From assembly GCA_001786765.1 (NCBI GenBank), contig MFTH01000008.1, forward strand, positions 2,939 through 66,938: a DNA stretch of 64,000 nucleotides, read 5' to 3'. Source of the DNA: Candidatus Nomurabacteria bacterium RIFCSPHIGHO2_01_FULL_37_25. GTDB taxonomy: Bacteria; Patescibacteriota; Minisyncoccia; Phycocordibacterales; UBA9973. Below are positions 2,205 through 56,697 of this stretch, one piece after another; the stretch's first letter is position 1, and each line of letters begins with the position of its first letter. The translations under genes were made by a program, and so were the position numbers. The notes beneath the pieces are model-generated. The model had not been told where the DNA came from. It saw nothing but the letters and a program-made list of their open reading frames with translations, and searched no databases.

Positions 2205-2747
2205 ATGCAAAGCAATTTTCCAAAAATACCCTTATTCTTTTCCATGATATTCTTTGCTTTTTCTTTGTTTGTTTTTTTGTTTTTCTTTGGAGAGATAAAT
2301 AACAATAATCGCAAAGCGGAGATAAAAGAAGGAGAGTGGTTGAATGAAAAAATTAAACGTAATGAAATGGAAACTCTTGATAATTCAATCAAAATTATAG
2401 ATAAAGAAATGATAGAGTTAGAAACTCATTTCGCAAAAAGTTCGGATATTGTGCCATTTTTAGACACAATTGAAGGATTGGCATCTAAGGTAAATATTAG
2501 CGCAGAGGTTGTATCTGTTAACATTTTAACAAACCATACTGGACTCACGGTCGGAGCGAAAACATCAGGAACTTTTAGCGAGATTTATAAATTCTTAGCG
2601 CTTTTAGAAAATTCTCCTTATGAAATCGAAGTTACCTCAATTGACATGCGTAGAGAGACAGAGTTAAATAGTGAAGAGAATAAAAATACCACAGTCCCAA
2701 AATGGAATATAACTTTTGAGATAAAACTTTTAAGTTTTATAGAGTAA
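2205..2747 (+). CDS. pilO: PilO-like pilus assembly protein
   Basis: 180 aa, single N-terminal TM, position in pilMNO cluster. Confidence 0.4.
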   Translation: MQSNFPKIPLFFSMIFFAFSLFVFLFFFGEINNNNRKAEIKEGEWLNEKIKRNEMETLDNSIKIIDKEMIELETHFAKSSDIVPFLDTIEGLASKVNISAEVVSVNILTNHTGLTVGAKTSGTFSEIYKFLALLENSPYEIEVTSIDMRRETELNSEENKNTTVPKWNITFEIKLLSFIE

Positions 2748-2757
2748 ATAAAAAAAT

Positions 2758-3081
2758 ATGTTTAAATTTTCCTTAAAAAAATTAAAAAAACAAAAGAATT
2801 TTACAAAAGACCAGGAAAGTTTCTGGCTGAATATAAATTTTTATTGGGAGGTGGCTGTTTTTGTTATGTTTGTAATAATTACGCTATCTTCTTTTTTTGG
2901 TTATTATCTTTTTGTAAAAACAAATCAAAAACTTGTTTTGGAAACAAATGATACTAATGCGCAGTTAAACACAATAAAAAAAGAAAGAATTGATAAGGTG
3001 TTAGAATATTTTTCTATAAAAAATAAAAAATCAGATCAAATATTAAATTCTCCTGCGCCCATAGTTGACCCCTCGCTCTAG
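2758..3081 (+). CDS. small single-TM protein (PilP-like or hypothetical)
   Basis: 107-aa ORF directly after pilO; no recognisable motif. Confidence 0.25.
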   Translation: MFKFSLKKLKKQKNFTKDQESFWLNINFYWEVAVFVMFVIITLSSFFGYYLFVKTNQKLVLETNDTNAQLNTIKKERIDKVLEYFSIKNKKSDQILNSPAPIVDPSL

Positions 3082-3085
3082 AAAG

Positions 3086-3114
3086 TTGAAAAGGTGTGAT
3101 TATATTGCTAGTAT
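3086..3114 (+). promoter_or_regulatory. sigma70-like promoter TTGAAA-N17-TAGTAT for tRNA-Val
   Basis: canonical -35/-10 spacing, ~30 nt upstream of tRNA 5' end. Confidence 0.4.
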
Positions 3115-3145
3115 ACTTAAGAGTGGTTTTAATAATATAAATTAT

Positions 3146-3221
3146 GCGCGGTTAGCTCAGTTGGTAGAGCGACTCATTTACACTGAGAAGGTCGGGGGTT
3201 CAAGTCCCTCACCGCGCACCA
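3146..3221 (+). tRNA. tRNA-Val(TAC)
   Basis: hand-folded cloverleaf: acceptor GCGCGGT/ACCGCGC, D-arm GCTC...GAGC, anticodon loop TTTACAC, T-arm GGGGG-TTCAAGT-CCCTC, encoded CCA. Confidence 0.85.
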
Positions 3222-3356
3222 ATATCAAACCTTCCGATTTTTGAAGCCAAAATGCGGGACGCGCGGAGCGCGTGGTGGAATAAAACTAATTTATACGCTT
3301 CTAAAACAATAAACAATAAATTAATATGGAGATATAGAAATTTATAAGCATTACCC

Positions 3357-3836
3357 ATGAAAAAAAATGCAACAATATTTCTTCAGGTAGTTATTATAAT
3401 CATCGGCATCACGGCGCTGGGTATCATGATTTGGTTTCCTTTGACCGAGGGTAGGGCCGTAAATCTAGACCTGTTTAGTATTTATGCTGACCCATTCATC
3501 ATATATGGATATGTGGTGTCTATTGCATTTTTTGTTGCTTTGCACCAGGCGTTTAAATTATTCGGATATATAAGGCAAAATAAATTATCCTCACCAAGCT
3601 CCGTGAAAGCTTTAAGGATTATAAAATATTGCGCGATTATATTAAGCGTTTCAATTGTAATGGCGGTGCTGTATATAACGATATTTCATAATAAAGATGA
3701 TGATCCAGCGGGTTTTGTTGCTATTGGTATTTTAGCTACTTTTATTTCTATCATAATCGTCACTATGGCTACGGTGTTTGAAAGAACTTTACAAAATCCC
3801 GTAGATATAAAGCCCGATAACGACTTAACCGTTTAG
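3357..3836 (+). CDS. hypothetical polytopic membrane protein
   Basis: 159 aa, 4 predicted TM helices, no motif. Confidence 0.3.
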   Translation: MKKNATIFLQVVIIIIGITALGIMIWFPLTEGRAVNLDLFSIYADPFIIYGYVVSIAFFVALHQAFKLFGYIRQNKLSSPSSVKALRIIKYCAIILSVSIVMAVLYITIFHNKDDDPAGFVAIGILATFISIIIVTMATVFERTLQNPVDIKPDNDLTV

Positions 3837-21496: not shown

Positions 21497-21925
21497 ATGC
21501 CAACAATTAATCAATTAATCAAAAGACCGAGAGTCAAAGCTCATCCGAAAGACAAGACGGTTGCTTTGACGCGTGGATTTAATGTTCTCAAAAACAGACC
21601 AATCTTTTTTTCGTCGCCTTTCAAGCGTGGCGTGTGTGTAAAAGTCTCCACAACGACCCCTAAAAAACCAAACTCAGCTCTTCGAAAGATCGCGAGAGTG
21701 CGACTTACCAACGGCATGGAAGTCACGGCTTACATCCCGGGCGAAGGACATAACTTGCAAGAACATTCTGTAGTTATGCTTCGCGGAGGACGCGTCAAGG
21801 ACTTGATCGGAGTAAGATATCATATTGTGCGTGGAGTATTAGACACACAGGGAGTTGAAAAAAGGAGACAAGGAAGGTCGCTTTACGGAAATAAAAAACC
21901 AAAAGAAAATGCGAAGAAAAATTAA
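21497..21925 (+). CDS. rpsL: 30S ribosomal protein S12
   Basis: [12 protein letters not shown]...; start at internal Met. Confidence 0.9.
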
Positions 21926-22379
21926 AAATAGAAATATAATTCAGCCCGACTTTATTTACAATTCTCAAAAATTGGAGAAGTTTATTAACTACATCATGTG
22001 GTCTGGAAAAAAAGAAACTGCGCGAAAAGTGATGTATGCGACTTTTGATGTAATTAAAGAAAAAACAGGCAATCCAAATCCGCTCGAGGTTTTTGATTTA
22101 GCAATGAAAAACGCCGGTCCTTTGACCGAAGTGCGTTCAAAGCGTATTGGTGGCGCAAACTATCAGATACCGATCGAAGTGCGATCTGAACGTCGCATAG
22201 CTTTAGCCATGCGATGGATTCGTGACGCCGCTCGCGGCGGGAAAGGCAAACCAATGCACTTGAAACTCGCCGATGAATTAATCGCCGCTTCCAAAGGAGA
22301 AGGTTCAGCTATTAAAAAGAGAGAAGATACGCACAAAATGGCCGAGGCAAATAAAGCTTTTGCCCACTTTGCTTGGTAG
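21909..22379 (+). CDS. rpsG: 30S ribosomal protein S7
   Basis: S7 signature; overlaps rpsL end. Confidence 0.9.
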
Positions 22380-22526
22380 TAATGTGATATACTTAACTGG
22401 TCGGGGTTCTAATCATTATTTATATAATCTTTTTGTTTAGCGGGAGTTTCTTTTGGTAGTTGTAAATTTTCAATATTTTTAGCTTAGTAAATTTATTTGC
22501 AAAAAACATTGATTTAGTCTAACATT

Positions 22527-22868
22527 ATGGGTATGAAAATAGAGCGACCTATAAATACTAAAAAAAAAGGAACTATAGAGTTTTTAGTTTACAAAGAAGG
22601 CAAAACTTTTGTTGGTGTTTGTCTGACTTTTGATATTATTGAAGAAGGTAATAATCCAGAGAAATTAATGGAAAGTATCCAAGAAGCAGCTCAAGGGCAC
22701 CTAAAAGTTGTTAGGGAAAAGAATATGCCAGATGATTTGCTTAATAGATATGCGCCAAAAGAATATTGGGATATATACTATAAAGCTATAGAAGATATAA
22801 AGAGCAAGAAATCAATAAAGTCACCTTATAGTTTTCTAATTTTTCCGTATGCCTCGAGGACTGTTTAA
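22527..22868 (+). CDS. hicB: HicB-family antitoxin
   Basis: 113 aa; HicB N-domain-like pattern (FVGVCLTFDIIEEGNNPEKLMESIQEAAQGHL); overlaps the next gene. Confidence 0.55.
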   Translation: MGMKIERPINTKKKGTIEFLVYKEGKTFVGVCLTFDIIEEGNNPEKLMESIQEAAQGHLKVVREKNMPDDLLNRYAPKEYWDIYYKAIEDIKSKKSIKSPYSFLIFPYASRTV

Positions 22869-23088
22869 TTGGTCATATCGAGATGTTATAGATTTCATCT
22901 CTAAAAATGGTTTTGTTTTTTATAAACAAAGAGAGGGTTCTCATGAATATTGGATAAATGAATCAACAAACGCGATTCTAGATATTAACTTTCATGGGCA
23001 AAAAAGTTTTCCACCAAGAACTCTCGAGACTATGATTCGTCAGTCAAAAATCAATAAAAAACTTTGGCGTGAATGGACTTCTCGTTAA
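22849..23088 (+). CDS. hicA: HicA-family mRNA interferase toxin
   Basis: 79 aa; REGSHEYWINESTNAILDINFHGQK matches HicA GSH core. Confidence 0.6.
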   Translation: MPRGLFNWSYRDVIDFISKNGFVFYKQREGSHEYWINESTNAILDINFHGQKSFPPRTLETMIRQSKINKKLWREWTSR

Positions 23089-23243
23089 TTTGCAAAAACT
23101 AGCTTTATAATATATAGTATCGGTAGCGCATGGGGCGCTTTTTATTATTTAATATTTGAATGTGAGCGTGTATTTTCCTTCGAGACAAAAGGTCTCTCAG
23201 GATGGTGATTTTCTAATCGCTTCGCTCAAGAAAAATCAACCAT

Positions 23244-25403
23244 ATGGAACGAGACTATCCTCTAGAAAAAGTTAGAAATTTTGGAATTATCGCGCACATT
23301 GATGCGGGCAAAACGACCACGACTGAGCGTGTTCTTTACTACACAGGCACGAAACACAAAATCGGTGAAGTTCACGAAGGAGAAACCACGACTGATTGGA
23401 TGGAGCAAGAGCGAGAACGCGGAATTACGATTACTTCTGCCGCGGTTACCTGTTTTTGGACACCCACATATGCTCCTAATGATAAAAACAAAAAACATCG
23501 TTTTAATATTATAGATACTCCCGGGCACATTGATTTTACGGTGGAGGTGAAAAGATCTCTGCGTGTTTTAGACGGAGCTGTCGTTGTTTTCGATGGAGTC
23601 GCTGGCGTAGAACCGCAATCAGAAACAAATTGGCGTTACGCTGATGAAGCCAAAGTTCCTCGTGTTTGTTTTATAAATAAATTGGACCGAATCGGCGCTT
23701 CTTTTGAACATTCGTACGCAACTATTTTAGATAGGCTTAGTAAAAAGGCTGTGCGTGTTCAGATCCCTATCGGTCTCGAAGACAAGTTTGAAGGTGTTAT
23801 TGATCTACTGCGAATGAAAGCTTTTTATTTTGAAGGAGAAATGGGCAATCAAGTTATTGAAAAAGACTTAGACACCTTGCCAGAAAATTTGAAAATGGAT
23901 GTGGTGAAATATCATTCTGAACTAGTAGAAAAAATAGTTGAGACGGACGATGCTATGATGACGGAATATTTAGAAGGCATGATTCCAGATCTTGATGTGC
24001 TAAAGAAAACTCTTCGCAAGGCGGTAATTGCGAATCAAATCTTTCCAGTTTTCGCCGGAAGCGCGTTAAAAAACAAAGGTGTTCAGCTAGTGCTCGATGC
24101 GGTGGTGGACTATCTGCCAGCGCCTACGGACATTGCTGCGGTTTCGGGCATTGATCCGAACAACGATGACGCTGTTATCACCAGAAATGCTTCAGATAAA
24201 GAACCTTTTTCCGCTCTCGCTTTCAAGGTGGCGACTGACCCATTTGTCGGTCAGCTTATTTTCTTCCGAGTTTATTCCGGCATACTTTCGGCTGGCAGTT
24301 ATATTTACAATCCCCGCACGCGCAACAAAGAACGCATCGGCCGAATTTTAAGAATGCATGCGAACGACAGAGAAGAAGTGAAACAAGTCTTTGCTGGAGA
24401 AATAGCCGCCGCTGTCGGGCTCAAAGACACTATCACTTCAGATACTATTTGTGATGAAAACAGTCCGATTATTTTAGATAGAATTGTTTTCCCAGAACCT
24501 GTTATCTCGCTTCGCATTGAACCAAAGACCAAAGCCGATCAAGAAAAAATGGGGATGGCTTTGAATAGACTTGCGCAAGAAGACCCTACTTTCAAAGTCA
24601 GCACTGACCAAGAAACAGGCGAGACTATCATTGCCGGCATGGGAGAATTGCATTTGGAAATTATTGTGGATCGAATGAAGCGTGAATTTACTGTGGAAGC
24701 GAATGTCGGCAAGCCTCAAGTAGCATATCGCGAAACGATTAACGGCACAGCTTCTGCTGAAGGGAAATATATTAAACAATCAGGCGGGCGTGGAAACTAT
24801 GGACATGTAAAGATAAAAGTGAAACCGATGGCAATGCTTTCAAAAGAAGAATTGGAAGATTTGCCAAAAAATACAAAGAGGTCTCCCGGTTTTGAATTTA
24901 TCAATACTATTAAAGGAGGAGTAATTCCGCAAGAATATATCGCGCCGTGTGAAAAAGGATTTAAAGAAGGGCTCGACCGTGGAGTTTTGGCTGGATTTAA
25001 GATGGTAAATGTCTCGGTGGAACTTTGGGATGGGAGTTATCATGAAGTTGATTCCAACGAACTCGCTTTCAAAATTGCTTCATCTATGGCAGTGCAGGAT
25101 GCATGCCGTCAGGCAAACCCGGTGATATTGGAACCAATGATGAAAGTGGAAGTTGTCACTCCAGATAAATTTATGGGAGATGTTACTGGAAATCTTTCTT
25201 CTAAACGAGCTCTTATTGAAGGCATGGAAGACAAAGGAATGAATAAAGTTATTCGCGCTATTGTGCCTCTTTCTGAAATGTTTGGCTACATGACTGGATT
25301 ACGTTCTATGACCGAAGGCCGGGCATCTTTTACTATGGAATTCTTTAGGTATGACATAGTTCCGCAAAATGTCGCGGAAGTAATAATATCTTCACGCAAG
25401 TGA
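23244..25403 (+). CDS. fusA: elongation factor G
   Basis: [10 protein letters not shown]-domain, full EF-G length. Confidence 0.95.
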
Positions 25404-25439
25404 TTTGGTATTTTTTTAATTTTTTGCTATATTATACTT

Positions 25440-25667
25440 ATGAAACAGTCGCGAAAATTTACTGCGGTCTATAAAAAGTCTGGCAAGTGGTATTCTGGTT
25501 GGATTGAGGAAATTCCTGGCGTAAATACCCAAGGTAGGACATTGACTGAAACTAAAGCTAATTTAAAAGAAGCGCTTTTGCTTATTTTGGAAACTAATCG
25601 TATGCTATCTAAAAAATCCGAAGGCCAATCTATTATCACCCGTGAAAGTCTAGCTGTATTTGCTTAA
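25440..25667 (+). CDS. hicB: HicB-family antitoxin (short)
   Basis: 75 aa; SGWIEEIPGVNTQGRTLTETKANLKEAL pattern. Confidence 0.55.
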   Translation: MKQSRKFTAVYKKSGKWYSGWIEEIPGVNTQGRTLTETKANLKEALLLILETNRMLSKKSEGQSIITRESLAVFA

Positions 25668-25673
25668 TTTCTC

Positions 25674-25868
25674 ATGAAACAGGTTGACCTTATAAAACAT
25701 CTCAGAAAATGTGGATGTATTTTTGTAAGGGAAGGCAATTCGCATAGTGTTTGGTATAATCCACTTACAGGAAGAACCTCTACTGTGCCAAGACATCATG
25801 AGATTAATAATTTTACAGGAAGAAATATTTGTAAAGATTTGGGTGTATCTATAATCAAAAAAAGATAA
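25674..25868 (+). CDS. hicA: HicA-family toxin
   Basis: 64 aa; LIKHLRKCGCIFVREGNSHSVWYNP...VPRHHEINNFTGRNICKDLGV is a near-textbook HicA. Confidence 0.75.
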   Translation: MKQVDLIKHLRKCGCIFVREGNSHSVWYNPLTGRTSTVPRHHEINNFTGRNICKDLGVSIIKKR

Positions 25869-25878
25869 TATAATAAAT

Positions 25879-26523
25879 ATGTTTGAATCTAATCAGGAAG
25901 TTATTGATATATTGGAAAAAACAGGCGCAGTAGTTGGTGACAGTCATTTTGTCTATGTTTCTGGAAAACATGCGCCCGTTTATGTTAATAAAGATTATGT
26001 CTATCCTCACACTGCGTATGTTTCTCGAATTGCGGAAATAATTGCCCAAAAATATAAAGACAGCCCGGTTGATGTTGTGGTTGGACCATCTATCGGGGGT
26101 ATTATACTTTCTCAATGGACAGCTCATCATCTTTCTCGTCTAAAAAGTAAAGATATATTGAGCATTTATACGGAAAAACAAATAGATAAAGATCAAATTT
26201 TTACTAGAGGTTACGATACATATGTCAGAGGGAGGAATGTTTTGATCGTTGAAGATGTGGTTACGACCGGTGGTTCGATAAAAAAGGTTATAAATAGTGT
26301 CCAAAAAAATGCTGGAAGAGTTCTAGCCGCTTGCGCGATAGTCAACAAAGACCCGATAAATATAAATCCAAGTTTTATCGGCGTGCCTTTTGATTATCTA
26401 GCCATTATCGGCATGGATGTTTATGATGCAAAAGACTGTCCATTGTGTGAGCAAAATATTCCCATCAACATCCAAATGGGCCATGGGAAAAAATATTTAG
26501 AATCCAAAAAAATAGCGCAATAA
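25879..26523 (+). CDS. pyrE: orotate phosphoribosyltransferase
   Basis: PRTase motif VLIVEDVVTTGGSI. Confidence 0.75.
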   Translation: MFESNQEVIDILEKTGAVVGDSHFVYVSGKHAPVYVNKDYVYPHTAYVSRIAEIIAQKYKDSPVDVVVGPSIGGIILSQWTAHHLSRLKSKDILSIYTEKQIDKDQIFTRGYDTYVRGRNVLIVEDVVTTGGSIKKVINSVQKNAGRVLAACAIVNKDPININPSFIGVPFDYLAIIGMDVYDAKDCPLCEQNIPINIQMGHGKKYLESKKIAQ

Positions 26524-27354
26524 ATGATTGTTAATAAATACAACAAAAGAGCGAAGAAAATAAATTCATTGCTTTGCGTTGGTTTGGATTCAGACTTTAC
26601 TAAAATTCCAAAGCGTTTTTTGAAATTAAAATTTCCACAATTTGAATTTAATAAGTGGATTATAGATGAAACACACGAATACGCAGTTGCTTATAAAATG
26701 AATAGCGCTTTTTATGAAATGCGCGGAGACAAAGGAATAGCAGAACTTAAGATGACGATAGATTATTTAAATAAAAATTATCCAGATATTTTTACAATTT
26801 TTGATGCCAAGCGAGCGGACATTGGAAATACAAACAATGGATACGTCATTTCTATTTTTGATTGGTTCTGTTTTGACGCGGTAACCTTACATCCATATTT
26901 AGGACAAGAAGCTCTCCAGCCTTTTTTAGACAGAAAAGATAAATGCTCTATTATTTTATGTCGCACTTCGAATCCGGGCGCGGGGGAGTTTCAAGATTTG
27001 GTATTAAAGAAACCCGCCTCCGCCAAAGGCTCCAGCGAGGCAAAGCCACTTTGGCAAATCGTGGCTGAAAAAGTTTCAAAAGATTGGAATAAAAATAAAA
27101 ATTGCATGCTAGTTGTCGGGGCGACTTATCTAAAAGAGATGAAAAAAATCCGTAGTATTATAGGTGGTATGACTTTTCTTGCGCCGGGTATCGGCGCGCA
27201 GGGAGGGGATTTGAAATCAGTGCTTAAATCCGGATTAAATAGTAAAGGTCTCGGTCTCATCATCAATTCTTCCCGCGGTATAATTTTTGCTGAAAATCCA
27301 AAAGAAGAAGCAAAAAAACTTTGCCAAGAAATAAGAAAATACAAAGATAATTAA
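26524..27354 (+). CDS. pyrF: orotidine-5'-phosphate decarboxylase (type 2)
   Basis: LCVGLDSD and DAKRADIGNT motifs. Confidence 0.75.
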   Translation: MIVNKYNKRAKKINSLLCVGLDSDFTKIPKRFLKLKFPQFEFNKWIIDETHEYAVAYKMNSAFYEMRGDKGIAELKMTIDYLNKNYPDIFTIFDAKRADIGNTNNGYVISIFDWFCFDAVTLHPYLGQEALQPFLDRKDKCSIILCRTSNPGAGEFQDLVLKKPASAKGSSEAKPLWQIVAEKVSKDWNKNKNCMLVVGATYLKEMKKIRSIIGGMTFLAPGIGAQGGDLKSVLKSGLNSKGLGLIINSSRGIIFAENPKEEAKKLCQEIRKYKDN

Positions 27355-27361
27355 TGAGTTT

Positions 27362-27392
27362 GACAACATTTTTTTATCTGCTATTATAGTCA
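27362..27392 (+). promoter_or_regulatory. candidate promoter TTGACA-N16-TATTAT upstream of tuf
   Basis: consensus -35 with good spacing; followed by ACTGCACTTTTGCAGT palindrome. Confidence 0.35.
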
Positions 27393-27522
27393 GAACTGCA
27401 CTTTTGCAGTTTTTATGTTGTTTTTTAAAAACAAAGATAAATTATTAGTTAATATATCGTTAGTAATCAAGCCTTAGCGACTGGTTCCTGTACGTTGAGT
27501 TTTGGTTAGTAATAAAAATTTT

Positions 27523-28716
27523 ATGGCAGAAGAATTTAAAAGAGACAGGCCACATATAAATGTCGGCACTATTGGTCACGTTGACCACGGCAAGACTACT
27601 TTGACCGCCGCAATTTTACATGTGCTAAACATGGCTGGAAAGTCAGTGCGACTTCGAGGTGTTGACCAGATCGACAATGCTCCCGAAGAAAAAGCTCGTG
27701 GAATTACTATTAATATTTCTCACAACGAATATTCAACGGATGCTCGTCATTATGCTCATATCGACGCTCCGGGACACGCTGATTATATTAAAAATATGAT
27801 TACAGGAGCGGCGCAAATGGATGGCGCTATTTTGGTGGTTGCGGCGACTGATGGCGCTATGCCTCAGACTCGTGAGCACGTTCTCCTTGCAAAGCAAGTT
27901 GGTGTGCCAAAAATAATCGTATTTTTAAACAAGTGCGATATGGTTGATGATAAAGAAATGATTGACTTGGTTGAAGAAGAAATTCGTGAACTTTTGACCA
28001 AGCAAGGATTTGATGGCGCAGGGGCTCCAGTTATTCGCGGTTCTGGACTCAAGGCTCTTGAATCAAAATCAGCTGATGACGAATGGGCGAAAAAAGTGCT
28101 TGAACTCGTAAACGCTCTTGATACTTATATTCCAATTCCGGTACGAGATATTGCAAAACCTTTTCTTATGCCTGTTGAAGACATATTTTCAATTGAAGGT
28201 CGTGGCACAGTTGTGACCGGAAAAATTGAAAGAGGTGTAATCAAGCTAGATGAGGATGTAGAGATTGTCGGTATTAAACCTACCCAAAAATCAACAGTTA
28301 CAGGTATTGAAATGTTTAATAAGAATCTAAAAGAGGGTATGGCTGGAGACAATGCCGGTATCCTTCTTCGTGGTCTAAAGAAAGAAGATATTACTCGCGG
28401 ACAAGTTCTCTGTAAGCCAGGCACAACTACCCCACATGATAATTTTACTGCTGAAATATATGTTTTGAAAAAAGAAGAAGGCGGACGTCACACCCCATTC
28501 TTTAAAGGCTATAAACCTCAATTTTATATTCGAACAACGGATGTTACGGGTGATGTGACTCTCGCAGAAGGCGCTGAAATGGTTATGCCTGGAGATACAG
28601 TAAAAATTACAGTTAAGTTAGTTACTCCAGTTGCGCTAGAAGAATCCCAAAGATTTGCTATTCGTGAAGGAGGCAAGACTGTAGGAGCTGGAGTAGTTAT
28701 AAAAATTTTAGGTTAG
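27523..28716 (+). CDS. tuf: elongation factor Tu
   Basis: [15 protein letters not shown]-equivalent, NKCD motifs; start at MAEEFKR. Confidence 0.95.
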
Positions 28717-28748
28717 AATATATTAATTTTGTTCATTAAAAATTAATC

Positions 28749-29213
28749 ATGGCAATAACAGAAAAAAAAGTTTCCGCCAAAGGCGGATCCGTCTCAGGCG
28801 GAAAAAATAAGAAAGAGCCTAAAGCAATTAAAGTTGCAAAAGCGCCTAAGGTTTCAAAAATTTCTCCGCAAAAGCAGAAATCTGTTCGCGCTGATACAAA
28901 AGATGCCAAAGTCATACTGCGTATTCGAGTCCGCGCTTACGAGAGTAAAATCTTGGATGCCTCAGTTAAACAAATCATAGATACGGCGGTTCGTTATGAT
29001 GCGGTGATAGTCGGACCTGTGCCTTTACCCACTGAAATAAAAAAATATACAGTCAATCGCTCTCCTTTTATTTATAAAAACACACGAGAGCAATTTGAAA
29101 TTCGTGTTCATAAAAGGTTGATTGATATCATAAACCCAAATACAAAGACTATTGAGGCTCTTACCAATTTGTCGCTTCCTTCCGGAGTAGATATTGACGT
29201 TAAAATGCTATGA
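28749..29213 (+). CDS. rpsJ: 30S ribosomal protein S10 with ~50-aa Lys/Ala-rich N-terminal extension
   Basis: C-terminal 100 aa match S10 (ILRIRVRAYESKILD...). Confidence 0.85.
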   Translation: MAITEKKVSAKGGSVSGGKNKKEPKAIKVAKAPKVSKISPQKQKSVRADTKDAKVILRIRVRAYESKILDASVKQIIDTAVRYDAVIVGPVPLPTEIKKYTVNRSPFIYKNTREQFEIRVHKRLIDIINPNTKTIEALTNLSLPSGVDIDVKML

Positions 29214-29333
29214 TCCCGTTAGAAGCCGCGATCGCAATTTAAAATATAAACAAAATATGAGATCAGATATTAGTAAAATTAATAACATAAAATGCGAGAT
29301 ATCCGAGTTGTTCGCGATCTGCTTCTAAACGGG
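29213..29333. mobile_element. palindromic MITE-like element E1 (type A), TIR TCCCGTTAGAAGC.../...GCTTCTAACGGGA, flanked by ATGA duplication
   Basis: ~22-bp terminal inverted repeat; ATGA at both flanks; downstream ATGA is the rplC start codon. Confidence 0.75.
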
Positions 29334-29942
29334 ATGAAATTCATTTTAGCAACAAAAGAAAATATGACGGAGTATTTTTCTGAAGAGGGTGTGGTTATCC
29401 CAGTAACGATACTTTCTGCCGGACCCGTGACGGTGACTAGAATTTTTGAAAAATCCAAAGATGGTTATAACTCTGTCCAAGTGGGTTTGGAAAAAAAGTC
29501 CCGACGCCCGAAGGGGTCGGGAGCCCGACCGCAAGCGTCGGGAAAAAATATCCTAAAAGAATTTAGATTAAAATCCGCCGACAAGATAGATGCAAAAAAG
29601 GGCGACAATATTGATGTTTCGGTTTTTGTTCCGGGTGATAAACTCCAAGTCTCCAGCGTATCTAAAGGCAAAGGCTTTCAGGGTGTCGTAAAGCGTCATG
29701 GTTTTAGTGGCGGTCCGCGCACTCATGGTCAAAAACATTCTGAAAGAGAGCCGGGAAGTATCGGAGGAGGACTCCGCACTCATGTTCCAAAGGGAATGAG
29801 AATGGCTGGCAGAATGGGCGGAGATCGCATTACCCAAAAGAATATCAAAGTTGTTTCTGTTGATAAAGAAAATAATATAATGCTGGTAAAAGGAGCAATC
29901 GCCGGCAAACGCGGGACTTTAGTTGAAATAATCAGCAGGTAA
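29333..29942 (+). CDS. rplC: 50S ribosomal protein L3
   Basis: L3 signature; the listed ORF start at 29292 lies inside element E1, so start set at MKFILATK. Confidence 0.9.
29503..29546. repeat. tandem GC-rich double hairpin (CCCGAC-N-GTCGGGA x2) inserted in frame in rplC
   Basis: gtcccgacgcccgaaggggtcgggagcccgaccgcaagcgtcggga; same element at 38072-38115. Confidence 0.7.
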
Positions 29943-29946
29943 TGAA

Positions 29947-30065
29947 CCCCGTTAGAAGTCGCGATCACGATTATGGCGATAATAAAGATATGAAAAAAGA
30001 TAACACAATACAAAAAAATAAAGAAAACTCTGAAAGTGTTGTATCGCGACCTACTTCTAACGGGG
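29947..30065. mobile_element. palindromic element E2 (diverged type A) between rplC and rplD
   Basis: ccccgttagaagtcgcgatcacg ... cgcgacctacttctaacgggg inverted repeat; 3' arm abuts a GTG start. Confidence 0.65.
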
Positions 30066-30727
30066 TGGAAGCAAAAATATACAATCAAAAAGGAGCTGAA
30101 ACCGGGACGATAAGTCTTCCAGAGAAAGTTTTTGCCGTCAAGTGGAAGAGTGACTTAGTGCATCAAGTTGTGCAAAGTATGAGAAGTAATAAAAGAGCAG
30201 GGACTGCCGACACCAAAGACCGTGGAGAAGTTCGTGGTGGAGGTAAAAAACCTTGGAAGCAAAAAGGTACAGGACGCGCAAGACATGGTTCAAGCCGAAG
30301 CCCTATCTGGGTTGGTGGAGGGGTAACGCACGGTCCGCTTGCTAAAAAAAATTATAAAAGAAAAATTTCAAAGAAAATGCGCGCGCAAGCTCTTTTCTCT
30401 GTTCTTTCAAAGAAGCTTAAGGATGAAGAAATTCTTTTTGTGGACACACTTTCTATGTCTTCTATCAAAACAAAAGATGCGGTAAAAGTAGTAGAGAATT
30501 TAGCGAAAGTTACTGATTGGAAAATGAAAGATTCTTCCCTGAAGCCTCGAGTGTTGACTGCGCTTTTTGGACGCAATGAAAAAACAGAAAAAAGTTTTAG
30601 AAATATTCCAGCATTAGAATTAGTATTTTTGAAGAATTTAAATCCATTTGATGTTTTAAATTATAAATATCTTTTAATAGAAAATCCGGTCGAAAGTATA
30701 AAATTTTTAGAATCTCGAGGTCAGTAA
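30065..30727 (+). CDS. rplD: 50S ribosomal protein L4 (GTG start)
   Basis: VEAKIYNQKG... matches L4 N-terminus; upstream part of the listed ORF is element E2. Confidence 0.8.
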   Translation: MEAKIYNQKGAETGTISLPEKVFAVKWKSDLVHQVVQSMRSNKRAGTADTKDRGEVRGGGKKPWKQKGTGRARHGSSRSPIWVGGGVTHGPLAKKNYKRKISKKMRAQALFSVLSKKLKDEEILFVDTLSMSSIKTKDAVKVVENLAKVTDWKMKDSSLKPRVLTALFGRNEKTEKSFRNIPALELVFLKNLNPFDVLNYKYLLIENPVESIKFLESRGQ

Positions 30728-30733
30728 AACAAC

Positions 30734-31012
30734 ATGACAATGATAATTAAAAATCCAAGAATTACCGAGAAAGCGTCTTTTGCGCAAGAGCAAAATGTTT
30801 ATACTTTTGATATTTCTTCCGGAGCTAGCAAAACCAACAAGACTGAGATAAAGAAAGCTATCTTTGCTCTTTACAAAGTAAAGCCTTTGAAAGTAAATGT
30901 TTTACCTGTGCCAAAGAAAAATATTATGTTTAAAGGGCGCGCTGGAGTAAAAGGCGGAGGCAGGAAAGCTTTAGTTTATTTAAAAGCGGGAGATAAAATT
31001 GAATTTATTTGA
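30734..31012 (+). CDS. rplW: 50S ribosomal protein L23
   Basis: L23 signature. Confidence 0.85.
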   Translation: MTMIIKNPRITEKASFAQEQNVYTFDISSGASKTNKTEIKKAIFALYKVKPLKVNVLPVPKKNIMFKGRAGVKGGGRKALVYLKAGDKIEFI

Positions 31013-31092
31013 CACTGAGGCATGACACTGAGGTACTTAGGTCTTGCCTCAGTGAAACAGTGAAAAGAAACACAATAAAACAATAAACAATT

Positions 31093-31932
31093 ATGAAAAC
31101 ATATAAACCAACAAGTAAATCACGAAGACAAATGACCCATGTGCTTTACAGGGAACTTTTGACGAAGTCACAACCGACCAAGTCTCTCACTTATGGTTTT
31201 AGACGTTCTGTCGGGAGGAATAGCAGAGGACGCATCACTGTGCGACATAAAGGTGGAGGACACAAACGTCTTTATCGCGAGGTTGATTTTTTATATAATA
31301 AAAAAGAAATTCCGGCTATAATAAAATCTATCGAATATGACCCAAATCGTTCAGCTTTTATTGGGCTAGCTATTTATAAAGACGGAGAAAAGAGATATGT
31401 TATATTGCCTAAATCTATAAAGCCCGGAGACTCTTTTATTGTTTCGGAAAAGGCGCCTCTCTCAGTCGCTAATAGACTTCCTCTTAAAAATATCCCAGTC
31501 GGGACTTTTGTTTATAATATTGAAATACAACCAAATGGTGGAGCGAAGATAGGTCGTTCCGCAGGAATTTTTGCGCAAGTAGTTGCTAATGCTGATGGAT
31601 ATACAAACATTAAAATGCCTTCAACTGAAGTCCGTAAAATAAATGAAAACTGCTTCGCGTGTATCGGTACTGTTTCAAACGAAGAACATCATCTTGAAAA
31701 TTATGGTAAAGCTGGACGAAGTCGCTGGAAGGGAATACGACCGACAGTGCGTGGAACTGCGATGAACCCTGTTGACCATCCGTACGGAGGTGGAGAAGGC
31801 AGACAAGGACGCGGAACAAAACGTCCAAAGACTATGTGGGGCAAAGTAACCGGCGGAAGAAAAACCCGCAGTCCAAAGAGATACTCAAATGTCTTTATTG
31901 TTTCTCGTCGTAAGACTGGGAAGAATAAATAA
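31093..31932 (+). CDS. rplB: 50S ribosomal protein L2
   Basis: L2 signature (GRNSRGRITVRHKGGGHK...). Confidence 0.95.
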   Translation: MKTYKPTSKSRRQMTHVLYRELLTKSQPTKSLTYGFRRSVGRNSRGRITVRHKGGGHKRLYREVDFLYNKKEIPAIIKSIEYDPNRSAFIGLAIYKDGEKRYVILPKSIKPGDSFIVSEKAPLSVANRLPLKNIPVGTFVYNIEIQPNGGAKIGRSAGIFAQVVANADGYTNIKMPSTEVRKINENCFACIGTVSNEEHHLENYGKAGRSRWKGIRPTVRGTAMNPVDHPYGGGEGRQGRGTKRPKTMWGKVTGGRKTRSPKRYSNVFIVSRRKTGKNK

Positions 31933-31970
31933 ATTTAAAATTTGTATCCTTTTTTGCGCTGTGGTATAAT

Positions 31971-32270
31971 TTGAATCTTATGAAAAAATTAACACTCAAA
32001 GAAATAAATTTACCAGTTACAATATTTAAAGAAGGCAAGAGTTATGTGGCGTATAGCCCTGCTCTTGATCTTTCTACTTGCGCTTCCACTTACAAAAAAG
32101 CGCAAACTAATTTTTCCGAGATTGTTGGAATTTTTATTGAAGAACTTGTAGAAATGGGCACACTGGATGTAGTGCTCCGAGAATTAGGCTGGCAGAAAAT
32201 AAAATCTAACTGGCAACCGCCAGTTGTTGTTTCAAATTATTTTCAACCGATGAATCTTTCGTATGCCTAA
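31971..32270 (+). CDS. hicB: HicB-family antitoxin
   Basis: 99 aa; PVTIFKEGKSYVAYSPALDLSTCAST HicB N-domain pattern; overlaps next ORF. Confidence 0.5.
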   Translation: MNLMKKLTLKEINLPVTIFKEGKSYVAYSPALDLSTCASTYKKAQTNFSEIVGIFIEELVEMGTLDVVLRELGWQKIKSNWQPPVVVSNYFQPMNLSYA

Positions 32271-32493
32271 GAAGCAAAATGTAACGAATAGGCAGTTTCA
32301 ACAATTTTTAATATATGTCGGTTGTTCTTTTAAAAGATCTAAAGGAGATCATTTTGTATATGCGCGTTCCGATTTAATACGCCCTATTATAGTTCCTAAA
32401 GATAATCCTCTACCTCAATTTATTATAAGAAATAATCTTAAATTGCTTGGAATGTCTTGGGAAGAATTTTTCAATATAATTGATAGAATATAA
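32263..32493 (+). CDS. hicA: HicA-family toxin
   Basis: 76 aa; GDHFVY...IIVPKDNPLPQFIIRNNLKLLGMSWEEF matches the HicA/YcfA core. Confidence 0.55.
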   Translation: MPKKQNVTNRQFQQFLIYVGCSFKRSKGDHFVYARSDLIRPIIVPKDNPLPQFIIRNNLKLLGMSWEEFFNIIDRI

Positions 32494-32498
32494 ATTAA

Positions 32499-32568
32499 AC
32501 CCGCAGTCCAAAGAGATACTCAAATGTCTTTATTGTTTCTCGTCGTAAGACTGGGAAGAATAAATAAG
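32499..32568 (+). repeat. 70-bp direct duplicate of the rplB 3' end (identical to 31863-31932)
   Basis: aacccgcagtccaaagagatactcaaatgtctttattgtttctcgtcgtaagactgggaagaataaataa present twice, bracketing the hicBA pair. Confidence 0.85.
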
Positions 32569-32609
32569 ACCTCACCTAAACCAAAAATTGTTTTTCCACA
32601 TTTTGCTGT

Positions 32610-32890
32610 TGCATTATTTCAAATATAATGTTAAAAAAACAAGCAGAAAGGGGGTGATGGTGTGGCAGTGATGCAAGTAAAAAGAACTCTTGCTAGAGCA
32701 AGGAAGAAAAAGGACCGCTTCTACTGGCATAAGAAGCGGCAGGCAACACGCTTAAGGAAAAGGAGGGTGAAAAGATGATACTGTTGTGGGGCTCTCTATT
32801 AAGGGGCCCCACTGTTGTTTTTACTCAAATATTTGACATTTTACTCTTATTTGCTACTATAAAACCAAGCTCGATTCGAGCTTTTTGTTT
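32610..32890 (+). ncRNA. candidate structured GC-rich RNA ending in a terminator hairpin
   Basis: no ORF; local GC well above genome average; several perfect hairpins (CCGCTTCT/AGAAGCGG, GGGGCCCC); AAGCTCGATTCGAGCTTTTT terminator at about 32866-32890. Confidence 0.2.
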
Positions 32891-32903
32891 ATATAAATTA
32901 TGA

Positions 32904-33024
32904 TCCCGTTAGAGATTATTCGGTTAAAATTTAACGGTTTATATAATGTATATACTAAAGTGAAATTATTAGTTTTAATAAGAAGACACAACGGAAATCT
33001 AAAGATTTCCTATCTCTAACGGGA
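32904..33024. mobile_element. palindromic element E3 (type B) upstream of rpsS
   Basis: TCCCGTTAGAGAT ... ACGGAAATCTAAAGATTTCCTATCTCTAACGGGA; ATGA on both flanks. Confidence 0.75.
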
Positions 33025-33377
33025 TGACAAGATCAATCAAAAAAGGCGTATATGTGGATGAAAGGCTTTTAAAAAAGATTGCCGGCAAAAATCCTCTTAA
33101 TACAGGAACCATAAAAACATGGAAGAGAGCTTGTGTTATATCTCCCGATATGCTCGGTTTTACTTTTGGTGTTTATAATGGCAAGGTTCATGTGGATGTC
33201 TTTGTTACTGAAGACATGGTGGGGCACAGATTGGGAGAATTTTCTCCAACAAAGAAATTTACAAAACACGGCGGAAAGATGCAGAAAGAACTCGAACAAA
33301 AGAAAATGGAAGCTGAAATAAATGCCGCCAAAGGGGCGACTGCGGCCGCGGCTGACGCCAAGGGCAGTAAAAAGTAG
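33024..33377 (+). CDS. rpsS: 30S ribosomal protein S19 (Lys/Ala-rich C-terminal extension)
   Basis: S19 core motif. Confidence 0.9.
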
Positions 33378-33383
33378 GAATGA

Positions 33384-33504
33384 ATCCCGTTAGAAGCCAC
33401 GATCGCAATTTGAAAAGAAACAAAAATATGAAATCAAGCATTATAAAAATTAATAATATAAAATATCAGACATGCGAGTTGATCGCGATCTGCTTCTAAC
33501 GGGA
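33384..33504. mobile_element. palindromic element E4 (type A) between rpsS and rplV
   Basis: ~85% identical to E1; flanked by ATGAA/ATGAA. Confidence 0.75.
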
Positions 33505-48819: not shown

Positions 48820-49251
48820 TTGTTTCTGCTTCTCTCTTATTGCTATAATACTGGAATGGACAGAAGAAAGCTCATAAAAACTTTAATATACCTTATTTTT
48901 TTAATTTTTTTAGTAAATTTTTTCGCAAATAAATTCTACTGGTATTCTTCTATTTGGTATTTTGATATGATTATGCATTTTTTGGGCGGATTTTGGGTTG
49001 GGCTTGCCTATTTCTATATTTTTCTACTCCAAAATATGTCTAGTAGATTAATTTTCAAAATATTATTTTCAGTATTAATTATTGGTGTCGGCTGGGAAGT
49101 ATATGAAATCTTAGTGAACGATATTCTTGCGCAAAATCCTTTTAATTATATAGACACTGTGTCTGATTTATTTTTTGACTTATTCGGCGGTTTATGTGCT
49201 ATTCTTTATTTATGGATCCCGTTAGAGATTAAAAAGTTTAATATAAAATAA
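48820..49251 (+). CDS. hypothetical membrane protein
   Basis: 143 aa, 4 TM; its last codons overlap the 5' arm of element E8. Confidence 0.3.
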   Translation: MFLLLSYCYNTGMDRRKLIKTLIYLIFLIFLVNFFANKFYWYSSIWYFDMIMHFLGGFWVGLAYFYIFLLQNMSSRLIFKILFSVLIIGVGWEVYEILVNDILAQNPFNYIDTVSDLFFDLFGGLCAILYLWIPLEIKKFNIK

Positions 49252-49335
49252 AAAATATATTTATGATCAAATTGATTAAAATATTAATAGTAATTAAGGG
49301 TACGGAAATCTAAAGATTTCCTATCTCTAACGGGA
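49216..49335. mobile_element. palindromic element E8 (type B) upstream of the beta-CASP gene
   Basis: TIRs identical to E3/E7; ATGGA/ATGGA flanks. Confidence 0.75.
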
Positions 49336-55342: not shown

Positions 55343-55377
55343 TCTTGTGCTAGCACTGCGAAGCTTTAGCGAAGCAG

Positions 55378-55771
55378 TGGAGATGGGGGGAAATGAGCCC
55401 CCGTGCAGAAGGTTTTTGTCAAGAAGTCTACATACATAGCGCGTTTTTTGTTTTAAATTAAAAAATTCAGAAACGCGCGAAATATTTTTTAATCGAGCTT
55501 CTGTGTTTCGCCCCGACGGCGAAGCTGTGTCGGGACTATCCCGATAATATTATGCCTCTACTCATATATCGGAAGTCTATGAGAGAGACACGAGTTACGC
55601 GTAAGCGGAAACTCGAGCGAAAGCGAAGTCATTCATACTGAAGTATGGAGAGACTGCTTTCACCTTAGAAGCTAATTTTGCAATTAACATTTGAACGAAG
55701 TTTTACGAGATTACGTTCATGCTCGGTATGCGTCAATAACAAATGGCCTACTGTCTATGCCTTGCATCCCC
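55378..55771 (-). ncRNA. ssrA: tmRNA (ssrA), CCA not encoded
   Basis: minus strand: 5' GGGGATGCAAGGCATAGACAG pairs with 3' ...GGGGG-CTCATTT-CCCCCC-ATCTCCA, same acceptor pattern as B. subtilis tmRNA (GGGGACG/CGTCTCC); ~394 nt; next to smpB. Confidence 0.6.
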
Positions 55772-56418: not shown

Positions 56419-56697
56419 ATCCCGTTAGAGATTACTTATGTTTTATTACACATACATATTAAAAAGCAAGAAGGACGGTAAAATTTACACGGGACATACG
56501 CAAGATCTACGGAAGCGCCTAAATCAACACAATAAGGGTTTATCGACATATACGAAAGGCAGAGGCCCATTTGTTTTGATATATTACGAAGCGTGTTTAT
56601 TAGAAAGTAAAGCGAGGTCGAGGGAATTATACTTAAAATCGGGAATGGGTAAGCGTTATCTTAAAAGTAGATTGGGCGCTTCCTATCTCTAACGGGA
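56419..56697 (+). mobile_element. full-length palindromic element E9 carrying a GIY-YIG gene (putative autonomous parent of the type B MITEs)
   Basis: 5' arm ATCCCGTTAGAGAT and 3' arm CCTATCTCTAACGGGATG identical to E3/E7/E8; the loop is filled exactly by an 84-aa ORF. Confidence 0.75.
56438..56692 (+). CDS. GIY-YIG nuclease family protein (COG2827-like)
   Basis: YTYILKSKKDGKIYTGHTQDLRKRLNQHN GIY-YIG core; stop codon TAA lies inside the 3' TIR. Confidence 0.7.
   Translation: MFYYTYILKSKKDGKIYTGHTQDLRKRLNQHNKGLSTYTKGRGPFVLIYYEACLLESKARSRELYLKSGMGKRYLKSRLGASYL

Follow-up and report, generated by a model that had tools for sequence, protein, structure and literature searches.

The locus

The stretch of DNA analysed here, referred to throughout as the window, comprises 64,000 nucleotides (nt) from a low-GC Candidatus Nomurabacteria (Patescibacteria/Paceibacterota) genome from groundwater, and carries the str, S10 and spc ribosomal clusters at 21.4–40 kb on the + strand. 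Within these clusters lie three hicB-hicA gene pairs of the HicAB toxin-antitoxin type: pair 1 between rpsG and fusA, pair 2 between fusA and tuf, and pair 3 between rplB and rpsS (Table 1). A preliminary description, made from the sequence letters, had placed six open reading frames (ORFs) at these sites, and all six are located as it claimed, on the + strand and with ribosomal genes identified on their flanks. S12, S7, EF-G, the phosphoribosyltransferase (PRTase), orotidine monophosphate (OMP) decarboxylase, S10 and L4 are identified with Pfam, and EF-Tu, L3, L23, L2, S19, L22, S3 and the subsequent genes follow the gene tables of identical public contigs. The conserved start of hicB1 is the ATG at 22533 and not the one at 22527 chosen by the ORF finder, that first ATG being absent from the homologues; for hicB3, the ATG at 31980, giving 96 amino acids (aa), is most likely the start rather than the TTG at 31971. 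The same description had the toxin gene overlapping the antitoxin gene in each case, which is true of pair 1 (by 20 nt) and pair 3 (by 8 nt), whereas pair 2 has a 6-nt gap.

An assembly artefact, affecting either the whole arrangement or the 71-nt repeat around pair 3, is ruled out because independent assemblies repeat the proteins, their order and both copies of the repeat. The exact proteins and their gene order recur in at least 22–24 contigs from independent JGI, ENA and NCBI assemblies, the six ORFs are intact in all assemblies, and all three pairs stand together on one JGI contig, Ga0209541_10001503. In-place duplication of one pair is ruled out as well: the three HicA proteins share 25–31% identity and the HicB proteins 14–22%, with no nucleotide similarity, so that the divergence first remarked upon is real. 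Three separate acquisitions are supported as the probable origin of the pairs.

Table 1. Features of the three hicB-hicA pairs and their surroundings (window coordinates; promoters, terminator and hairpins are predicted)
Feature	Coordinates	Strand	Description	Basis
rpsG (S7)	21909..22379	+	flank upstream of pair 1	Pfam Ribosomal_S7, 191 bits
Pair-1 promoter	22497..22525	+	-35 TTGCAA (22497-22502), 17-nt spacer, -10 TAACAT (22520-22525)	sequence reading
hicB1	22533..22868	+	short HicB antitoxin, 111 aa, N-terminal domain only	
hicA1	22849..23088	+	toxin, 79 aa	Pfam HicA_toxin 42.8 bits, GSH motif
Promoter-like site and hairpin	23088..23148	+	TTGCAA-17-TATAGT (second ATTTGCAAAAA), then hairpin AGCGCATGGGGCGCT and T-run (23125-23139)	
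fusA (EF-G)	23244..25403	+		Pfam GTP_EFTU, EFG_III/IV/C
Pair-2 promoter	25405..25433	+	TTGGTA-17-TATATT, begins 1 nt past fusA stop	promoter scan
hicB2	25440..25667	+	short HicB, 75 aa	Pfam UPF0150 27.1 bits, weak HicB_lk match
hicA2	25674..25868	+	toxin, 64 aa	Pfam HicA_toxin 46.9 bits
pyrE-like PRTase and pyrF (OMP decarboxylase)	25879..27354	+	resident fusA|tuf cargo	Pfam
Hairpin element copies	29213-29333, 29948-30064, 32905-33023, 33386-33503, 49218-49334	+		
Direct repeat copy 1	31862..31932	+	last 23 rplB codons and stop (rplB 31093-31932)	
Pair-3 promoter	31942..31970	+	TTGTAT-17-TGgTATAAT	sequence reading
hicB3	31980..32270	+	short HicB, 96 aa	
hicA3	32263..32493	+	toxin, 76 aa	Pfam HicA_toxin 24.5 bits, sub-threshold
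Direct repeat copy 2	32497..32567	+	non-coding, begins 3 nt past hicA3 stop	
Terminator, rpsS promoter, hairpin	32786..32883	+	intrinsic terminator 32786-32812; promoter TTGACA-16-TACTAT 32833-32860; hairpin 32867-32883	
rpsS (S19)	33024..33377	+	flank downstream of pair 3	Pfam Ribosomal_S19 in gene tables

Identity of the HicA and HicB proteins

By profile, fold and gene order, the ORFs are the HicA and HicB genes they had been taken for. HicA1 and HicA2 score above the gathering score of Pfam HicA_toxin (PF07927), which is 27, and HicA3 falls just below it; HicB2 is borderline for UPF0150, whose gathering score is 27.3; HicB1 and HicB3 have no match of any kind in Pfam or NCBIfam, and NCBIfam has none for any of the six proteins. 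Further evidence places HicA3 in the family. PF07927 is carried by 27 of 34 HicA3 homologues in precomputed annotation, the residues G28-D29-H30 are invariant across 20 HicA3-family sequences, and the HicA3-family profile matches a single PDB entry, the HicA-like 1whz, whose His lines up with that of the family. For HicA2, too, there is only one PDB match, to the HicA-family toxin 9svk, in which the SH motif is aligned, and the conserved His of all three proteins occupies one alignment column, as GSH in HicA1, NSH in HicA2 and GDH in HicA3. As for the antitoxins, the PDB sequence matches of HicB2 are confined to Burkholderia pseudomallei HicB (6g1c, E 0.0033; 6g1n, E 0.0076) and TTHA0281. The families of HicB1 and HicB3 extend across Patescibacteria, with 129 and 93 clusters, and JGI or PGAP sometimes name their members HicB; profile-profile comparison shows one family to be related to the other (hhalign probability 89.5%, E 2e-6). 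In the AlphaFold models of the two proteins (pLDDT 83 and 91), three strands are followed by a long helix and a strand that returns, a partial RNase H-like N-terminal fold, and Foldseek on the HicB models gave no match significant by itself. In a metagenome scan with the HicB1 family, about 72 of 80 loci have a HicA-like gene after the HicB1-family gene. HicB1 and HicB3 represent two Patescibacteria-specific subfamilies of short HicB that current Pfam models overlook. None of the three HicB proteins (75–111 aa) has a C-terminal ribbon-helix-helix (RHH) or helix-turn-helix (HTH) domain, the models and Pfam showing no DNA-binding domain.

These ORFs could instead be something other than toxin-antitoxin genes, namely small RNA-binding proteins (the HicA fold being dsRBD-like and the HicB fold RNase H-like) that act with the ribosome, or decayed remnants. 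Such a reading draws on the two of three antitoxin candidates without a Pfam match, on the sub-threshold HicA3 and on the empty result of a PADLOC defence-system search, but it is very improbable given that hicB precedes and is coupled to hicA in the canonical way and with the usual sizes, and given the catalytic His, invariant across the family together with the motif around it, the intact ORFs in all assemblies and the patchy and mobile character of the families, which is unlike that of conserved ribosome factors. Assignment to a known defence system is unsupported, PADLOC having returned zero matches. The identification as hicB-hicA pairs is well supported on these comparisons, and from it we infer toxicity and neutralization.

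The cassette and its promoter

When each pair is aligned with homologues from different genomic contexts, homology starts at the -35 hexamer, some 35–40 nt before the hicB ATG, and stops at the hicA stop codon or a few bases past it. The unit so defined is a cassette of about 0.45–0.6 kb, made up of its own predicted promoter, hicB and hicA. From the end of the -10 element to the hicB ATG there are 7 nt in pair 1, 6 nt in pair 2 (ATG at 25440) and 9 nt in pair 3, and this spacing of only 6–9 nt suggests that the hicB mRNAs are leaderless or nearly so. The hicA genes have no Shine-Dalgarno sequence and overlap or abut hicB, and translational coupling is therefore implied. The promoter is kept with the cassette of pair 1 in loci L010 and L001, where it occupies a different junction, and in L110-112; with that of pair 2 in L011, in the rplB|rpsS context, and L075; and with that of pair 3 in L089, L091 and L104, in non-ribosomal or other contexts. 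Neither a recombinase nor terminal inverted repeats were found at the window cassettes or their ends, and their flanks hold no integrase.

Junctions of the ribosomal cluster in relatives

The 80 closest public rplB loci, all from the Candidatus Nomurabacteria group and with L2 identities of 84–94%, are the relatives (L-numbered loci) of the junction counts. Most cluster junctions are tight across them, with medians of 20–74 nt and a wider tuf|rpsJ (median 146 nt), and four alone are ever expanded. Of these, rpsG|fusA exceeds 300 nt in 11 of 36 loci (minimum 9 nt), fusA|tuf in 45 of 49, often with pyrE/pyrF, rplC|rplD in 4 of 68, and rplB|rpsS in 58 of 69 (median 575, range 101–7349 nt). The window pairs fill three of these four expandable junctions. 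Comparison of synteny agrees with the initial view of the pairs as inserts relative to related genomes: rpsG|fusA measures 9–12 nt in many relatives versus 864 nt in the window, and rplB|rpsS goes down to 101 nt versus 1091 nt.

That the pairs lie inside the most highly transcribed operons, on the other hand, is only partly apt, because rplB|rpsS appears to be an operon boundary in this clade. This is read from the strong terminator and the clade-conserved rpsS promoter (32830-32892 is kept just upstream of rpsS in about 60 relatives). Furthermore, fusA|tuf already holds pyrE/pyrF, as it does in about 20 relatives, and the cassettes carry promoters of their own. Pair 2 is squeezed in here, 36 nt after the fusA stop and 10 nt before the start of the pyrE-like gene, with no repeat in its flanks. 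Pair 1 is thus the only one to open up a junction that many relatives keep tight.

The junctions also receive other cargo. When 146 small ORFs from the relatives' expanded junctions were compared with Pfam, matches were found to YafQ (3), RHH_1 (3), RelB, HigB-like and ParE, as well as to HicA (2), UPF0150 (3), GIY-YIG (2) and Cas2-like (3) families; the small junction ORFs are mostly unassignable, and the set contains more than 200 sequence clusters. In general, then, the cluster junctions are hot spots where small and often selfish cargo collects, other toxin-antitoxin families among it. Elsewhere in the window a stand-alone 84-aa GIY-YIG gene (56438-56692, Pfam 66 bits) adjoins the tmRNA gene at 55375-55771 (minus strand). 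Rfam has no known RNA family in the region, its only matches in the window being this tmRNA and tRNAs elsewhere.

Mobility and horizontal exchange

In local profile searches over 1.35 Mb of loci, only 7 of the 80 relatives proved to have HicA genes, and in no case was the position a conserved one. The six with a mapped position (all but that of L031) stand at cluster junctions, often other than that of the window homologue. Cassettes like pair 1 occur at rplC|rplD (L001, L010) and rplB|rpsS (L025), those like pair 2 at rplB|rpsS (L011) and in the fusA-pyrE interval (L075), and one like pair 3 at rplB|rpsS (L009). The pair-1 homologues at rplC|rplD in L001, L010 and L110-112 have 85–86% nucleotide identity. 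Others occur at rpsJ|rplC. Context look-ups that were not tied to rplB placed pair-1 homologues at rplC|rplD, downstream of rplI, downstream of groEL and in an integrase/Mrr island, and pair-3 homologues upstream of rpsB, beside Nramp and in tandem with another hicBA. L105/L106 carry, at 2501–3662, a HicB3-family pair followed by a HicB_lk_antitox and HicA pair; two different hicBA pairs in tandem show that the cassettes can stack.

In the metagenome scan with the HicB1 family, which was unbiased with respect to location, 18 of the 80 loci fell in the str/S10 cluster (rpsG|fusA 10, rplC|rplD 4, rpsJ|rplC 4), and the others had heterogeneous neighbours. After dereplication at 95% nucleotide identity, 11 of 62 clusters lay in str/S10, or 11 of the 39 with enough flank. 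Since a genome of this size has several hundred intergenic sites, some 11 of them junctions of this kind, an estimated 1–2% would be expected, a background that rests on typical genome sizes and not on a census. The placement of the HicB1 family in str/S10 is clearly non-random, at roughly ten times the chance rate. It fits the idea of a safe haven or that of a target preference without discriminating between them.

How the cassettes travel can be judged from the identities of cassette and host. Hosts with 92–94% identity to the window in S7 and 92% in EF-G carry HicB1 proteins that are only 55–59% identical to its own, and more distant hosts (S7/EF-G 86–88%) have HicB1 at 84–89%. The cassette is 85–86% identical at the nucleotide level compared with 77–80% for the flanking rpsG, and identity in rpsL and rpsG beside it is flat at 70–84%, with no rise toward the cassette (the profile covers rpsL and rpsG; the fusA alignments are gapped). 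On account of this difference and the lack of a rise in the flanks, the cassette seems to move as a unit, without its flanks.

Spread by homologous recombination, with the ultra-conserved flanks (S7/EF-G, L2/S19) serving as homology arms after DNA uptake, would account for the divergent HicB1 alleles at the same rpsG|fusA junction that are incongruent with flank similarity, for the very variable cargo at the same junctions and for the foreign-type rplB 3'-end remnants downstream of rplB in L011 and L024. It would not, however, produce the same cassette at different junctions and at non-ribosomal sites, and the flat identity in rpsL/rpsG, seen even in genomes with the most similar cassette, together with homology that ends at the cassette ends, speaks against it. 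We regard this route as quite unlikely, and co-transfer of the flanks as unsupported. Carriage by phage is also unsupported, a search of 2.9 million viral contigs having found no HicB1-family relatives.

Target duplications and insertion

Pair 3 gives the clearest view of an insertion end. The two copies of its direct repeat are 71 nt long and 100% identical, and both are found in independent assemblies; the insert measures 564 bp and encodes no recombinase. Because the insertion would have duplicated the 3' end of rplB, rplB is left intact. The pair is kept in 22 of 22 contigs with an identical L2 protein, and no excised allele occurs among these 22.

Comparable repeats are found in other loci. 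In L104, an 85-nt direct repeat of 96.5% identity (2300-2384 and 3254-3338) flanks a HicB3-family hicBA with a DUF2283 gene; this repeat is an intergenic terminator region at a non-ribosomal site, a long duplication like that of pair 3. In L040, an RHH and RelE/YafQ-type pair lies between two copies of the 3' end of rpsG, 59 nt long and 93% identical, and 26-nt rplB-like remnants lie on either side of an RHH and RelE-type pair in L011. In addition, L011 (3930-3995, 4548-4592) and L024 (3143-3203) carry, past their own rplB stop, the rplB 3' end of a different lineage (...AAGACTGGRAARAATAAATAA), preceded by a hairpin; these remnants appear to be traces of recombination that took place more than once at this end of the gene. 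Among the long target duplications of pair 3, L104 and L040, no common core was seen. Candidates for the insertion process are a small circle with target homology, template switching in replication, and a recombinase acting in trans.

Pair 1 is bracketed by an 11-nt repeat, ATTTGCAAAAA, at 22495-22505 and 23088-23098, whose copies coincide with the -35 of the pair-1 promoter and the -35 of the promoter-like site before fusA; in L114, a 27-nt repeat of the same promoter lies on either side of the cassette. Ahead of fusA are two blocks, 23089-23148 (promoter-like site, GC hairpin and T-run) and, immediately before the gene, 23198-23243. They are kept only in relatives with an insert at rpsG|fusA, whatever the insert (L007, L031, L042, L057, L068, L071, L080), and have copies elsewhere in L031, L038 and L013. 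The blocks resemble a "restart" leader that is portable and serves whichever gene lies downstream.

Between repeat copy 2 of pair 3 and the terminator lies a hypervariable spacer (32568-32785) with an extremely basic 35-aa ORF at 32671-32778 (MQVKRTLARARKKKDRFYWHKKRQATRLRKRRVKR), preceded by a GGGGG-rich stretch. This ORF is not conserved in the relatives and is therefore probably not a gene. The same holds for the ORFs that the relatives have on the minus strand of their rplB|rpsS spacers.

A further family of elements, about 117–120 nt long and with terminal inverted repeats TCCCGTTAGA...TCTAACGGGA, spans exactly from the stop codon (TGA) of one gene to the ATG of the next. In the window its copies (Table 1) are located at rpsJ/rplC, rplC/rplD, upstream of rpsS, at rpsS/rplV and at one gene pair outside the cluster, and it also occurs in L039, L061, L072, L073 and L118/L119. 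The predicted fold has a 14–20-bp closing stem and an AU-rich loop (z -3.7 to -6.2), so that the stop codon comes to lie next to the start codon. Every copy runs in the direction of transcription, and by chance no copy would be expected. Rfam has no match for the family, which may represent either a hairpin element that is mobile or a device for translational coupling. Because of these elements, start calls of S10, L3 and L4 differ between annotations. For S10, an N-terminal extension of about 50 Lys/Ala-rich codons is possible (28749-28898; 154 versus 104–117 aa), the long form being called by JGI and the short one by NCBI, with the Pfam S10 domain starting at residue 58.

Interpretation

We consider it likely that the window holds three independently acquired, autonomous type II HicAB cassettes in permissive junctions of the str-S10 cluster, where they are kept by a combination of tolerance and retention. 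Each cassette would consist of its own σ70-type promoter, a short HicB reduced to the toxin-binding N-terminal domain, and a translationally coupled HicA with the catalytic His. If the pairs work as characterized HicAB systems do, HicA would cut mRNA without needing the ribosome, and direct binding by HicB would neutralize the toxin. The cassettes would move as discrete units between junctions and genomes, leaving flanks behind, and some insertions would duplicate 60–85 nt of the target, in pair 3 the rplB 3' end. Over-representation in the cluster would arise from tolerance of the target, that is, of operon boundaries between essential and undeletable genes, and retention from the resistance of an addictive module to loss. 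Tolerance plus retention most likely explains the bias towards ribosomal junctions, a dedicated role in regulating the ribosome being less likely. The suggestion of selfish addiction at loci that cannot be deleted, made in the preliminary description, is compatible with this explanation.

Several points weigh against it. First of all, the score of HicA3 (E 3e-5) lies under the gathering score. Second, classical autoregulation cannot be assumed, because the short HicB proteins have no DNA-binding domain. Third, cassette promoters and leaderless starts are consensus readings only. Fourth, the enrichment is set against an estimated background, and a single old insertion, passed on vertically, could account for part of the signal at rpsG|fusA. 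Finally, long target duplications were seen in only 3 of about 100 cassettes examined, and no single insertion mechanism explains all cases.

A different explanation, akin to the regulatory role also offered in the preliminary description, is that the cassettes have been integrated functionally, as regulators of growth rate or stress. Transcription running on from the promoters of rpsL-rpsG, fusA and the S10 operon would link the synthesis of HicB and HicA to ribosome production; as ribosomal transcription drops, the labile HicB would be degraded, leaving HicA to cut mRNAs and enforce dormancy. All three pairs indeed point the same way as the ribosomal genes, no terminator is predicted between upstream gene and cassette, the HicB1 family is placed in the cluster in a strongly non-random manner, HicB proteins without a DNA-binding domain would have their expression set by promoter context and not by autorepression, and pair 3 is fixed in the species, being present in all contigs sampled. 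Nevertheless, such coupling to the ribosome is disfavoured, and we rate it unlikely, because the distribution is patchy and non-orthologous (7 of 80 close relatives and no conserved position, the opposite of a conserved regulator) and because each cassette takes its own promoter along to non-ribosomal sites. Unrelated cargo at the same junctions also argues against it. There is a slim but real chance of a broader scheme, in which the str-S10 junctions of Paceibacteria/Nomurabacteria are preferred landing pads for promoter-bearing toxin-antitoxin cassettes without a recombinase, inserted by an undescribed process that duplicates 60–85 nt of the target, and in which co-orientation couples the supply of toxin and antitoxin to ribosome synthesis. 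If true, this would give minimal cells a built-in growth-rate or dormancy switch.

In bacteria with some of the smallest known genomes, the most conserved gene cluster has a few hypervariable junctions that accumulate and exchange toxin-antitoxin cassettes, a natural system for the old question of whether chromosomal modules of this kind are kept as useful or are merely hard to lose. Pair 3 is especially useful here, in that its perfect 71-nt repeats should permit clean excision and yet no excised allele is seen. Furthermore, the block of ribosomal-protein genes used in phylogenomics and in the binning of uncultured bacteria is not strictly syntenic, and gene callers disagree at these junctions, for example over the starts of S10, L3 and L4.

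Comparison with known systems

HicAB has been mentioned as present in ultra-small groundwater prokaryotes (PMC9938205), and in Patescibacteria, tuf and genes of ribosomal proteins are often found within predicted genomic islands (PMC12455944). In the literature searched, there was no report of toxin-antitoxin genes within ribosomal protein operons. The modules are ordinary members of HicAB with short antitoxins; their novelty is the genomic niche, which is unusual and appears to be a general and previously unremarked property of the lineage.

Compared with characterized HicAB systems (Escherichia coli; B. pseudomallei, 6g1n/6g26; Yersinia pestis HicA3B3, 4p78; Streptococcus pneumoniae, 5yrz), the pairs have the same hicB-hicA order and small sizes, and their HicA proteins share the PF07927 match, in HicA3 just below the gathering score, and the catalytic His. 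Characterized HicB proteins, though not all family members, have a C-terminal RHH or HTH for autorepression, which the three HicB proteins here lack; two of these belong, moreover, to Patescibacteria-specific subfamilies missed by Pfam, and the mRNAs are predicted to be leaderless. The closest parallels to such short antitoxins are the Thermus thermophilus UPF0150/HicB-like proteins TTHA1756 (2yzt), TTHA0281 (2dsy) and TTHA1013 (1wv8), of 67–87 aa and with a single-domain HicB fold, HicB2 itself lying at the UPF0150 threshold. The Thermus proteins were structural-genomics targets without demonstrated toxin partner function, whereas each HicB here is paired with a hicA.

The toxin-antitoxin cassettes of Vibrio super-integrons are very small, promoter-bearing and mobile, and are thought to stabilize the surrounding DNA against deletion. 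The cassettes described here resemble them as small promoter-bearing units that move as cassettes, but are without an integron integrase, an attC-like inverted repeat or an array, and their targets are essential-gene junctions. Islands inserted at the 3' ends of tRNA, tmRNA or protein genes share with pair 3 the direct repeat of the target 3' end, here 71 nt, and the intact gene, and the rpsG repeat of L040 likewise resembles such islands. In contrast to these, the pair-3 insert is only 0.56 kb and without an integrase, the repeats have no common core, and pairs 1 and 2 have no long repeats. Finally, the self-splicing introns and homing endonucleases in rRNA genes of the Candidate Phyla Radiation (CPR) are also selfish DNA in the most conserved, undeletable part of very small genomes, and GIY-YIG genes at the cluster junctions are a further trait shared with CPR selfish insertions. 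CPR introns interrupt a gene and splice out; the HicAB cassettes, on the other hand, stand between genes and are presumably kept there by addiction.

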